64,000 nt of DNA from Puniceicoccales bacterium (lineage in GTDB: Bacteria; Verrucomicrobiota; Verrucomicrobiia; Opitutales; JAIRLM01), in NCBI GenBank assembly GCA_031268535.1, contig JAIRXB010000033.1:1886-65885 (forward strand). The letters run 5' to 3'. Below the pieces are notes generated by a model. That model ran no database searches, was not told the origin of the DNA, and was given only the letters and a program-made list of their open reading frames with translations. How positions within the stretch are numbered: position 1 is the first letter of the stretch; each line of letters opens with the position of its first letter. This document shows, in pieces, positions 12,609 through 21,150 of this stretch. The translations under genes and the position numbers were made by a program.

Positions 12609-13346
12609 ATGGCCCACTTTTACATCTACGGCGGCGATGGGGAAATTGTTGAAAATGTGCCGGTGCCGCTGGACAAAGCCGCCGCACACCATTTGCTCCG
12701 CGTCCTCCGCGTCGACAGACTGGACGAACTCACACTTTTCGACGGCAAAGGGGTCACCGCTAAATGCCGCCTGGAAGTAAGCAACCGCCATTCGGCCTTT
12801 GCAATTCCAGGCGTTCCGCAAATGGAGGTCGCTCCCCGGCGAAAACTTCATCTGCTACAGGGAATGGCGAAGTCTGCCGCCATGGAGGACATCGTGCGGC
12901 GGGCAACGGAACTTGGAGTTTGGGAAATACATCCACTGCAATGCGAAAGGGGAAACGGCGGCCTAGGGCGAAATGATTTTTCGCGGCGCCTTTGCCGATG
13001 GCGCTCCATCGCCATCGGCGCCTGCAGCCAATCGCGCAATCCGTTCCTGCCCACAATTCACGAGCCGACACGCCTGGAAAATATTCCCATTGGGGCCAAT
13101 TCGCTGCGCATCGGGGCGTCCCTTGGGTCGGAGTCCATGCCGTGGAAAACGTTCGCGGACGATCGGCGACAGGAATGGCAATCGGGCGATGCCTACGTCG
13201 CGGTTGGGCCGGAAGGTGATTTCACGGCGTCGGAATGGCATCTCCTTCGCACGAAAGGCTTTGCGGAGCTTTCGCTCGACTCCGGCGTGCTGAGATCGGA
13301 AACGGCCGCCGTGGTTCTGCTGGCACTGGCTAAATTGGCGCTCTGA
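12609..13346 (+). CDS. rsmE: 16S rRNA (uracil1498-N3)-methyltransferase
   Basis: Starts at ATG 12609: MAHFYIYGGDG...AAAHHLLRVLRV..ELTLFDGKG. The C-terminal GPEGDFTASEW...LSLDSGVLRSETAAV matches RsmE SPOUT motifs. Confidence 0.85.
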   Translation: MAHFYIYGGDGEIVENVPVPLDKAAAHHLLRVLRVDRLDELTLFDGKGVTAKCRLEVSNRHSAFAIPGVPQMEVAPRRKLHLLQGMAKSAAMEDIVRRATELGVWEIHPLQCERGNGGLGRNDFSRRLCRWRSIAIGACSQSRNPFLPTIHEPTRLENIPIGANSLRIGASLGSESMPWKTFADDRRQEWQSGDAYVAVGPEGDFTASEWHLLRTKGFAELSLDSGVLRSETAAVVLLALAKLAL

Positions 13347-13589
13347 AAGGCAACTGCCCGCAGCCGAAAGAGGACAGCCCCATTGCCGCTCCCAACGTGG
13401 GCGCCATCCATGGGCGACCCAACCGGCACAGCACGACCGCCTAGGGCTGCATCGCAAAGCCCGCATGGCCCATAGAAGACGCCGAACTTCCTTCTAAATT
13501 CATGCAAATCTACCAAAGTGGAACGCCCAAAAAAAACCTTCGGAAAATCTCACCCGTGGACCACTTTGCTGATCTTCCACATGCTACTC

Positions 13590-14120
13590 AGCCCCGCTCC
13601 AGTCACAATCTTTGCTCGGCTTCTGAACAAACTGAAGATTCTCACTCAAAGCACCGTGCGCATCACTTCACTACTGCCTCCCATGGCGATTTCAAACGCA
13701 CCAAAGACGGCGCCAATGATCCCAGTCGGCGCGATTGGCTAATGGATAGCCTCAAATGAATCAACGGAGGCGGCAGCGGCGGATTCCACATCATCGACCG
13801 GCTAATGTGGCAGATGGGCAGCAACGACCTCTTCGCATCGTCCGGCCGGCCAATGGGATAGATATCACGTCAACGTCCTCTGCGCCATCGATCGGCTAAT
13901 GCGGCAGATACATACGTATTAGCGGCCTCTGCGGCCAATGGGCCACTAACCACGAACACAACAACGGCAACCACTGCAGCCGCCTCGATGCATGCAACTT
14001 AGTGCCTTCGGGGCTATGCGAAAAGGGGTATCTCAGGTGCATCGAGACCACAAATTTGCCATTCCATTTCGAACCTCTAGAGCGTGCAGTAGCCGTGAGA
14101 TTCAACCGCATCGGCGAGAC
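13590..14120. repeat. Cluster 1 of a degenerate short-repeat family with core GGCTAATG...CAGATAcGCA..CAACGACCyCTGCGGC
   Basis: Exact GGCTAATG occurs at 13737, 13801 and 13894, each followed by related sequence. The cluster lies in the 956-nt convergent gap between rsmE and the 14303-15925 gene. Confidence 0.6.
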
Positions 14121-14302
14121 TACGCTCGGCAGCAGGAATTGACCAGCCGTCGCTTGCGGGCGGCAGCAACAAAATATCTAGCGGCAACGGCCTGGAGTCC
14201 ATTCGCAGTCAAAAAGCCAACGAATTCGCCGGACAAGCCGGAGCCGCCATCTCCATTTGTGCCAATGGCCGCGCCAGGAAATTAGTGGGAACTACTTGCC
14301 GC

Positions 14303-15925
14303 CTACGCCATTTGCGACTGACCACTTGAGCCTGAACGCCTTTTCACCAGCTTGTCGAGCTTAGCAAAAGCGGTGGAAGCCATCGCAAGACCGCCGGTAA
14401 ATCTCACCTGGGGTCCAACGCCTACATCACTCCCCCACCTGCTGCCGTTAAACTCACCCCAGTGTCCATCTTTGCACAGGCCGCGAACAAATTCGGCCTT
14501 CTCACATAGCCCGCCAGGTGTTCTGTCGCTTAGCGCTAAAGTTCCAAGCGCATCGGCGAGGGCAGCAACGACATCCGCGATTAAATCAATGCATAAAACT
14601 CCTTTCGCCGTACTCGAAAGGCTTTGCCCATCAACATAATCCTGCAGCTCAAATCCACCGCCACCATCACCATAGACATGTTTGCTGAACGCCTCAGCGC
14701 CAATCTTTGAGAGTCCATCCCTAGCAAGTCGCACAATAAGATCTTTGCATTCGGTATCGCCACCGCCGGATCCGACTGCAGCCGCCATGAAAATCGCAGC
14801 AAATGGATCAAGCTTTCCGAGAGAAAGCTTGTTTTTACTTGAAAACGCCATTTCAAGCGCCGCAATAACGGCCGCAAACTGCTTGTCGCGTTCGGAGCCA
14901 AAAACAGTCGCAGCACGCCCTTGCAGCGAAGAAGTGCTCAAAACAACTGGAAACAGGGTTTTCCCAATCTCTCCGACTACTTCTTCCAAAAATGATCTTG
15001 CCAAAGGATCGCTTCCCTTTCCACTAGCCTGAGCCGAATCCAATGCGGAATCCATCTCTCCGAGGGCCAATGCCGCAGTGCGAATCCCAACTCTAACCCT
15101 GGCTTCCTCGGAAACCAACTCAAAAAGATAACAGAGAAGCGCCTCATCATCTTTGGTGAGTGTTTCATTTGGATCGCGAAAGCCAATTCCGTAGTGCGAA
15201 TTCAAAAACAACCCAAACAAATCACTGAGAGCATGACAACGAGGTTGGCCGACCCCATTATTAAGCGGCACCGAGAAATACTGCAGCCCCATTCCGTTAG
15301 CATCGTAACCCAAAGCGCCATACGCACGACCGGCATGGCACTCATAGGCACTCCCAGGTATAGCGTCTCGTTCCACTTCCTCTGCAAGTGGGCCATGCCT
15401 CCCCATGGCGATTTCCACAAGCGCTTCGTAGATTTCTCCTTTCCGCTGAGGATGATCGCCTCTCCGCTTAACAAAAAATTTATCGGCTAGCTCATCAATG
15501 AGCTGGGAGCTGGAGGTGCTGGCGGCAATAGCGCTGTCAGCCGCCTCCCCCTCGAGCGCAGATTGACGAGACGGATTGTTAATCTCGCCGATAAGCCGCG
15601 CTATCGGCGAAAGGCTCTGCTGGCCGGCTGCGATAAAATATATGGCGAAAGCGGCCCACATGAGGCCAAACGTTACAATGGTGCCAATGATTAACAGGAA
15701 GGTTACTTGCTGACTCAGCCCTTTGTTGACGGCCTTAGCAAATTCGCTGGCGGGATGGTTGGCGCACCATTGAAGAATGTTTTCACGACTAGCAACGTAG
15801 CCGACAAAAAAAAACGCGGTTACGGCTTGAGGTACGTTCATGCTAATTTGTGCAGCACGGGGCTCGGAACGAGTCGCAACTAAACCCTGGCTATCGCGAG
15901 TTTCATAATTCATCATGGATGCCAT
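14303..15925 (-). CDS. Hypothetical 540-aa protein, intact copy of paralog family A; N-terminal ~28-residue hydrophobic stretch
   Basis: A long uninterrupted ORF. It is a clear paralog of 19119-20764: ADKFFVKRRGD, NGMGLQY, TKDDEALL, DPFAAIFMAAAVGSGGG, CIDLIADVVAAL. The hydrophobic segment is VTFLLIIGTIVTFGLMWAAFAIYFIAAG. I recognise no known domain. Confidence 0.6.
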   Translation of the reverse strand: MASMMNYETRDSQGLVATRSEPRAAQISMNVPQAVTAFFFVGYVASRENILQWCANHPASEFAKAVNKGLSQQVTFLLIIGTIVTFGLMWAAFAIYFIAAGQQSLSPIARLIGEINNPSRQSALEGEAADSAIAASTSSSQLIDELADKFFVKRRGDHPQRKGEIYEALVEIAMGRHGPLAEEVERDAIPGSAYECHAGRAYGALGYDANGMGLQYFSVPLNNGVGQPRCHALSDLFGLFLNSHYGIGFRDPNETLTKDDEALLCYLFELVSEEARVRVGIRTAALALGEMDSALDSAQASGKGSDPLARSFLEEVVGEIGKTLFPVVLSTSSLQGRAATVFGSERDKQFAAVIAALEMAFSSKNKLSLGKLDPFAAIFMAAAVGSGGGDTECKDLIVRLARDGLSKIGAEAFSKHVYGDGGGGFELQDYVDGQSLSSTAKGVLCIDLIADVVAALADALGTLALSDRTPGGLCEKAEFVRGLCKDGHWGEFNGSRWGSDVGVGPQVRFTGGLAMASTAFAKLDKLVKRRSGSSGQSQMA

Positions 15926-20764: not shown

Positions 20765-20834
20765 AGCATGTAAATTGTAGCGAAAGCGCGCAAAGAGTCA
20801 CTCTAAAAAAGCACAATTCAGTCTCCACTGTGGC

Positions 20835-21005
20835 TATGCACGCACCAATGTTTAGGGCAACGCAGCCGTCTCCATTTGGGCCAATGCCCACAAATATCCA
20901 GCCGACAACGGCATCCAAAAGGTCGGCGGCGCCGTAGATGGCCGCAAAGGTGGTGGCGAGCAGCGCCTCGCCGTCAAAATCAAAACCAATCAAAGCGGCG
21001 GCAGC
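20835..21005 (-). pseudogene. ~170-bp duplicated internal fragment of the neighbouring gene 21119-22561; the original is at about 21365-21535
   Basis: It translates to IGFDFDGEALLATTFAAIYGAADLLDAVVGWIFVGIGPNGDGCVALNIGAC, versus IGFDFEGEALLATTFAAIYGGADLLDAIVGWIFADIGANGDGYVAVNIGAC in the full gene. Confidence 0.65.
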
Positions 21006-21008
21006 GGG

Positions 21009-21150
21009 ACGTCAAAACCAACGTTTCTCTTGCCGGCCAACTCACTCAGCCTCCAAGCCGACGCTGCAAAATAGCTAATGGCAACGCTATCCGTTTCCAT
21101 CGGCGATCGCTCCGGCAATTAGGACGGTGGCTCCGATCGCCATTGGCGCC
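21009..21150 (+). repeat. Second copy of the last ~110 nt of the lipoprotein gene plus the lipoprotein/rsmE junction; copy 1 is 17153-17283
   Basis: Collinear match, for example ccaacgctatccgtttccatcggcga(c/t)cgctccggcaattagg(g)acggtggctcc. Confidence 0.65.

Follow-up and report, generated by a model that had tools for sequence, protein, structure and literature searches.

How did the single cluster of repeats in this 64,000-nucleotide stretch of a Puniceicoccales contig (hereafter, the window) arise, and why is one of its genes present in two nearly complete copies while the others survive as fragments? In a self-comparison of the whole window by blastn, every repeat falls within 13.0-21.5 kb. 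This segment carries the methyltransferase gene rsmE, an orphan gene that we call A (copies A1 and A2), a putative lipoprotein gene L, and a second orphan gene, B. We consider it very likely that the locus is a genuine, lineage-specific hotspot of tandem segmental duplication in a chromosome related to the Puniceicoccales (Verrucomicrobiota), shaped by the birth and death of gene A.

A unit of ~4.5 kb, consisting of the 3' half of rsmE, a spacer, gene A, and L, has been copied head-to-tail at least twice. Comparison of the 12-23 kb region with the whole window by blastn, combined with a repeat search, yielded only direct, collinear diagonals, and their E-values, calculated against the 64-kb window, lie between 1e-10 and 0. 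The order of the rsmE fragment, spacer, A, and L end is the same in both units. The repeat pairs are as follows.

13003-13156 and 17266-17419, direct: rsmE internal fragment, 89.6% identical (16 mismatches in 154 nt).
13303-13630 and 17960-18289, direct: rsmE 3' end with downstream sequence, 84.6% identical (92% over the first 207 nt).
13587-13742 and 18640-18790, direct: spacer piece, 75% identical.
14007-14118 and 18947-19058, direct: spacer piece, 74% identical.
14306-15552 and 19098-20343, direct: gene A, 73% identical; at the protein level the similarity extends further, to residue 29 of A1.
17145-17285 and 21010-21150, direct: L 3' end with the junction, 88% identical.
20832-21006 and 21362-21536, direct: fragment of gene B, 91% identical.

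A preliminary description of this DNA had proposed a direct tandem duplication and suggested a self dot-plot as a check. All the collinear diagonals that it listed were recovered, at coordinates correct within a few bases: the rsmE internal fragment, placed there at 17262-17420 with 13 mismatches in ~130 nt, and the copy of the rsmE 3' end with downstream sequence, placed at 17961-18293, are the first two pairs above. The B fragment is an addition to that description. Read from left to right, the locus is composed of the following features; unit 1 extends from position 13003 within rsmE to the end of L, and unit 2 from junction J1 to junction J2, where gene B follows.

12558-13346, plus strand: intact rsmE (16S rRNA m3U1498 methyltransferase), from which the pieces 13003-13156 and 13303-13346 were duplicated.
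13347-13509, no strand: 163-nt non-coding stretch 3' of rsmE, of the "young" class, 91.4% identical to 18004-18166 without gaps.
13510-14302, minus strand: spacer element E1; it is copied from the 3' ~340 nt of A, has decayed, and contains stops.
14303-15925, minus strand: A1, orphan gene; maximal open reading frame (ORF) of 540 aa, with a database gene call of 512 aa from M29 (15841).
16052-17257, plus strand: L, intact conserved putative lipoprotein gene; likely start at 16157, 366 aa, N-terminus MGRLARVFILSAATLAAGC.
17258-17285, plus strand: junction J1, composed of the L stop, the 9-nt linker GGGACGGTG, and rsmE from 13003 onward.
17266-17419, plus strand: rsmE internal fragment, codons 150-201, 10.5% diverged, dN/dS 0.79.
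17421-17959, minus strand: E2a, a decayed A 3' fragment in place of rsmE nt 13158-13302 (145 nt).
17960-18166, plus strand: rsmE 3' end (last 14 codons and stop) with 163 nt downstream, 92% identical to 13303-13509.
18167-18600, minus strand: E2b, a decayed A 3' fragment, collinear with E1 at only 72.7%.
18601-19097, minus strand: E2c, directly downstream of A2, the positional counterpart of E1 and 76% identical to it.
19119-20764 (feature listed as 19098-20764), minus strand: A2, paralog of A1, in frames 19373-20764 (463 aa) and 19119-19439 (106 aa).
20765-20831, minus strand: A2 upstream region (~67 nt), ~45 nt of it visibly homologous to the A1 upstream region.
20832-21006, minus strand: fragment of B, residues 399-458, 175 nt, 9.2% different from 21362-21536.
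21010-21119, plus strand: L 3' remnant; it comprises the final 36 codons, interrupted by an in-frame stop and 12% diverged.
21120-21150, plus strand: junction J2, the linker GGACGGTG and 21 nt of rsmE (equivalent to 13003-13022).
21119-22729, minus strand: B, orphan gene; maximal ORF of 536 aa, database call of 491 aa with start at 22594.

The fusion of the L end to rsmE nucleotide 13003 is a novel joint that marks the head-to-tail duplication. It is found twice, at 17258-17285 and 21120-21150, with the same linker (GGGACGGTG in J1 and GGACGGTG in J2) between the L stop and rsmE; by eye, J1 also has a possible 4-nt overlap, TGGC. The second occurrence had been described as a third copy of the lipoprotein/rsmE junction, and it is real, but its rsmE part is only ~21 nt long (13003-13022 against 21130-21150). 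The chance expectation of its 19/21 match within 4 kb is, by a rough estimate of our own, ~1e-6. The match is thus far too long for coincidence, so that the joint itself was in all likelihood copied; this requires a minimum of three units, or else a second event. A pre-existing 21-nt microhomology, which would permit a single duplication, is unlikely by the same rough estimate. At the sequence level the locus shows the marks of a tandem duplication: direct collinear copies, a novel head-to-tail joint, and similarity beyond chance that is limited to the locus.

The fates of the copied genes differ. As had been described, the redundant copies of rsmE and L were lost and that of A was largely kept: deletions have trimmed the bystanders to stubs of 110-360 nt, whereas A2 is nearly full length. 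The second L gene, reported as reduced to ~110 nt at 21009-21120, is the remnant at 21010-21119. Each bystander is also present as an intact, conserved gene. The assignment of rsmE is supported by full-length matches to PF04452 (Methyltrans_RNA, 4e-34), PF20260 (PUA_4, 1e-7), and TIGR00046 (139 bits, cutoff 41). L has 321 homologs from several phyla at 93-99% coverage, with a best identity of 75% and Puniceicoccales metagenome-assembled genomes (MAGs) as the best named matches; it is a conserved protein with an N-terminal signal peptide plus Cys, and its function is not assigned. The stubs behave as neutral DNA paired with a constrained gene, to judge by the dN/dS of the rsmE fragment and the stop in the L stub.

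Gene A shows a different pattern. The frameshift noted in the paralog at 19119-20764 is due to a single 1-nt deletion near 19480 (GCTAGGGGTTTAGC versus GCTGAGGCGTTCAGC), at a site without a long homopolymer. With the missing base restored, A2 encodes 548 aa that are 48.5% identical to A1; since the two proteins are so different, dosage is not what is kept now. A comparison of the two copies, which the preliminary description had suggested, gave dN 0.43, dS 0.50, and a dN/dS ratio (omega) of 0.87. Along the alignment, omega ranges from 0.3 to 1.45 in windows, with 1.3-1.45 at codons 271-390, values from which we draw no claim of positive selection. In spite of this near-neutral amino-acid rate, A1 and A2 contain no in-frame stops in ~1090 codons, whereas neutral simulation with the divergence set to that observed produced 13.1 on average and at least 3 in each of 2000 runs (an approximate simulation, in which one lineage received all substitutions, sampled from the observed spectrum). 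In the aligned coding part, the 1-nt deletion of A2 is the only indel that breaks the frame; the others measure 3, 24, or 33 nt. The absence of stops and the multiples of three argue that both ORFs were held open by selection until recently. Moreover, the motif blocks ELADKFFVKRRGD, NGMGLQY, FMAAAVGSGGG, and CK.LIVRL.RDGLS are sharply conserved and interspersed with variable stretches, and past the frameshift A2 retains an open stretch of 106 C-terminal codons, with 57% identity to A1. Nucleotide identity drops from 73-80% at the 3' end to ~45-54% over the first 450 nt, part of which is perhaps 5' untranslated region. We conclude that A1 and A2 were each translated and selected during most of their separate history, the A2 frameshift being either recent or a sequencing error.

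The strongest competitor is neutral retention: A would be under no selection, A2 would be a less decayed pseudogene, and the fates of the copies would have been set by where the deletions fell. An omega of 0.87 is not distinguishable from 1, A2 is frameshifted, and the GC content at third codon positions (GC3) of A1 and A2 is well under that of their neighbors, as in weakly constrained genes. This explanation is nevertheless improbable, as it has to account for the missing stops (0 of 2000 simulations had fewer than three), for in-frame indels being the rule, for conserved blocks that alternate with variable stretches, and for the open frame beyond the A2 deletion. That gene A was the target of amplification, as had been proposed, is compatible with the data and plausible, but unproven.

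The product of A is probably a fast-evolving, envelope-located protein. In each copy, the only strong hydrophobic helix lies towards the N-terminus (residues ~72-101 in A1 and ~66-96 in A2). No homologs of A were found in a word-indexed search of 5.8e9 proteins or in a HMMER profile search of 1.84e9 representatives, where the products of the window itself were recovered; none were found in two metagenome scans, one viral scan, Pfam, NCBIfam, PHROGs, PADLOC, or the PDB. The sole outside match of the profile search, to the 4306-aa MBG-repeat adhesin P0004, is repeat-driven and was judged spurious. Exact look-ups of the A1 and L products gave no record either. GC3 is 0.48-0.50 in A1 and A2 versus 0.61-0.71 in rsmE, L, clpP, lpxB, prmC, and tpiA (0.61 in B), which fits a foreign origin or weak codon selection. 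In the variable linker of A2, an in-frame 36-nt tandem duplication at 20318-20387 (1.9 copies, 88% match) lies where A2 has extra residues relative to A1. Upstream of A2, the sigma-70-like sequence GTGACT-16-TACAAT at 20801-20774 is a consensus match only, as the count of such matches is not above chance; the promoter and terminator scan as a whole gave counts at chance level.

The spacers hold an older part of the history of A. Repeats had been described as following the rsmE 3' end in unit 2, and they do, but they are not anonymous: the "repeat-rich spacers" consist of pieces of the gene A 3' end, older and decayed, one in unit 1 (E1) and three in unit 2 (E2a, E2b, and E2c). A DNA profile built from the last ~460 nt of A1 and A2 and searched with nhmmer matches E1 at 13645-13533 (E 1.3e-4) and 14025-13955, E2a at 17942-17864 (E 0.01), and E2b at 18313-18172 (E 5e-6), together with several weaker collinear matches, all on the minus strand that encodes A. 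The full-length A profile matches the spacers only via its last ~340 positions. Remnants of the C-terminal motifs of A ('FVR.LC', 'GP.VRF', 'CID..A.VVAA') are recognizable in the spacers with stops between them; in E1, for instance, tblastn shows 'FV..(C)..GP.VRF'. Among the four elements, identity is 70-77% (z 19-68 when compared with shuffles; E1 shares 73-76% with the three others, and E2a 77% with E2b), and between the elements and the A 3' ends it is 64-72%. A short motif, CGATCGGCTAATG, recurs solely within the elements. Neither an Rfam family nor a tRNA match was found in the spacers.

Smaller repeats are nested inside the elements. At 13732-13901, 17759-17855, and 18465-18893, CGATCGGCTAATG and a GCACCAACGGCC-like partner recur every ~63-94 nt; by eye, both seem to be derived from the A coding segment 'CIDLIADVVAAL', which points to micro-duplications. 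Since the spacers are older copies of the A 3' end and themselves contain smaller internal repeats, duplication has recurred at several scales.

Partial 3' copies of a gene lying immediately downstream of it in the same orientation could also be silent donors, which recombine into A and vary its C-terminus as in systems of the pilS/vls/tprK type, or orphan modules of a polymorphic toxin. Both the array itself and the fast evolution of A, with its probable extracytoplasmic domain, would suit such cassettes. We regard this as very unlikely, because the elements are interrupted by stops and frame breaks, match A at only 64-72% identity (over 80-170 nt) and without long identical flanks for recombination, and correspond to the least diverged part of A rather than to its most variable one, while no toxin, immunity, recombinase, or reverse-transcriptase signal is recognizable in A, B, or L. 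It is just as doubtful that A and its downstream copies form a worn or occasionally active system for swapping the C-terminus of an envelope protein in an uncultured Puniceicoccales lineage, with the duplications as its by-product. A diversity-generating retroelement was considered separately and rejected: mismatches are spread over all four bases with no adenine bias, and A1, A2, L, and B, the four genes of the region that were scanned against Pfam, match no family there and show no reverse-transcriptase domain.

The duplications are not all of one age. Two divergence classes are seen, ~10% for the stubs of rsmE, L, and B and ~25-33% for A and the spacers; the pooled stubs are 9.7% diverged, versus a proportion of synonymous differences (pS) of 0.36 in A (p = 9e-25). 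The change is abrupt at 13509/13510, where divergence is 8.6% over the 163 nt at 13347-13509 and 27% over the next 121 nt (13510-13630; Fisher p = 4e-5). Divergence is therefore heterogeneous across the unit rather than uniform, as one event would have left it, and a single event is insufficient to explain two significantly different classes. "One or two rounds" of tandem duplication had been proposed; the duplication stands, but this number leaves unexplained the two divergence classes, the four spacer-element copies, the B fragment, and the remodeled B 3' end. Three layers or more are required: the E element arose from the A 3' end (64-72% identity), a burst gave at least four E and two A copies (70-77%), and events ~10% old affected pieces of rsmE, L, and B. 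The collinear abrupt step is the expected trace either of unequal crossover between diverged E elements or of a conversion tract from an intact gene, which we do not rank.

Gene B was drawn into these events. Its fragment, a templated insertion, occupies the place expected for the A-L intergenic region and ~90% of L. Read on the opposite strand, J2, the linker, and the L stop supply the last 10 codons and the stop of B; thus the rearrangement rebuilt the 3' end of B. In the homolog searches B matched only itself. B as called in the database (start 22594) shares its first 29 nt with the end of prmC (stop 22566), which is on the same strand; the two genes are therefore probably transcribed together, with A2 farther downstream in that orientation.

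That two strain variants were stitched in tandem, or a repeat mis-resolved, during metagenome assembly is scarcely credible: although every one of the nearest relatives is a MAG or a contig from a metagenome and the source is probably a metagenomic contig too, the adjacency of the L end and rsmE nt 13003 is foreign to any single-copy strain yet occurs twice in diverged form, the longest exact match between the rsmE 21-mer and its J2 copy is ~8 nt (by eye), far under an assembler k-mer, unit 2 has an architecture of its own (E2a, E2b, the B fragment, and deletions) and is no allelic variant, and copies that are 8-33% diverged and structurally different do not come from a collapsed or duplicated assembly of one sequence.

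Genuine tandem duplication with birth and death of A gives the following course of events. The unit from within rsmE (nt 13003) through the spacer and A to the L end was copied head-to-tail, creating the L-end/rsmE-13003 joint, probably by illegitimate or unequal recombination or by template switching at short homologies. Deletions trimmed the redundant rsmE and L copies to stubs, one deletion scar received a copy of a 175-nt piece of B, and the B 3' end came to read into the second joint. Later unequal crossing-over between diverged spacer elements, or gene conversion from intact rsmE, L, and B, may have followed, either of which would account for the younger appearance of the stubs compared with A and the spacers. 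Selection on A may be the reason for the survival of its copy; A1 and A2 diverged at a nearly neutral amino-acid rate with complete reading frames until A2 gained its one frameshift.

Several observations weigh against this interpretation. A2 is currently frameshifted; unless a sequencing error accounts for the deletion, it is not being kept now. An omega near 1 is equally expected under complete relaxation, and the support for function comes only from the missing stops and frameshifts. The AlphaFold2 model of A1, predicted as all-alpha, is unusable (predicted local distance difference test score, pLDDT, of 38). No relative carrying the locus was found in any of the protein, metagenome, and viral collections searched. 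Finally, the order of events has no unique reconstruction, and gene conversion, instead of a later event, could have produced the ~10% class.

In the loci of relatives that were compared (L001 and L006-L011), A, B, and the duplication are absent. The best match of rsmE is in L001, a Puniceicoccales MAG, at 51% identity and with the order clpP-fabV-x-rsmE shared. The slot convergent with the conserved lipoprotein gene contains in these relatives large ORFs without a Pfam match.

L008, 11190-12755, minus strand: 521 aa.
L010, 4608-7370, minus strand: 920 aa; by eye, it seems to share the layout of A, in which a hydrophobic helix comes after a short N-terminal tail.
L007, 5383-6372, minus strand: 329 aa.

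In L001, a 533-aa ORF without a Pfam match (10776-12377, minus strand) occupies the slot just after rsmE. No homology of these positional orphans to A or B was detected by tblastn and hhalign. Such slots may be hot spots for fast-evolving orphan genes. Elsewhere in the window, two adjacent ORFs on the plus strand, 34820-36484 and 36544-38256, are distant paralogs (24% identity over ~190 aa) in a region of local GC content 0.50-0.51 versus ~0.57 elsewhere. The maximal ORF of fabV (10743-12176, minus strand, 477 aa) has Pfam domains from residue 82, and its N-terminal 80 residues are probably non-coding.

The locus is a "fossil record" of the birth and death of a gene family in a poorly sampled bacterial order, in which nested duplications at three scales, bystanders trimmed to stubs, and the collateral remodeling of the neighbor gene B are preserved together. 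A1 and A2 form an orphan pair whose frames stayed open while half of the residues changed, and they provide concrete material for asking what role fast-evolving orphan membrane proteins have in such bacteria. The locus opens no long-standing question and would not surprise a specialist.

Three kinds of known systems can be compared with it. Silent-cassette and orphan-module loci are exemplified by Neisseria pilE/pilS, Borrelia vlsE, and the orphan C-terminal modules of contact-dependent inhibition (CDI) and Rhs systems. They similarly have partial 3' copies arrayed downstream of a full-length gene in the same orientation, but the fragments at this locus have decayed: they contain stops, retain 64-72% identity, flank the part of A that varies least, and have no associated immunity or recombination genes. 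Birth-and-death families of surface or effector proteins are similar in their lineage-specific paralogs, omega near 1, pseudogenised members, gene fragments, and atypical GC3; the family considered here differs in having two members in one genome, and a secretion signal and host context are not established for A. Tandem gene amplification of the innovation-amplification-divergence type shares with this locus the head-to-tail copies, the novel joint, the evidence for more than two units, the deletion of co-amplified bystanders (rsmE and L), and the retention and divergence of one gene copy. In contrast to a recent unstable amplification, this locus is an old fixed relic with 10-33% divergence, in which A2 is frameshifted and no selected activity can be named for the retained A. 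The locus is not a specialized molecular system, nor does it involve a new kind of mechanism; only the orphan genes A and B are unmatched, and the phenomenon itself is well known, the locus being a relic of amplification, divergence, and decay of the textbook type.

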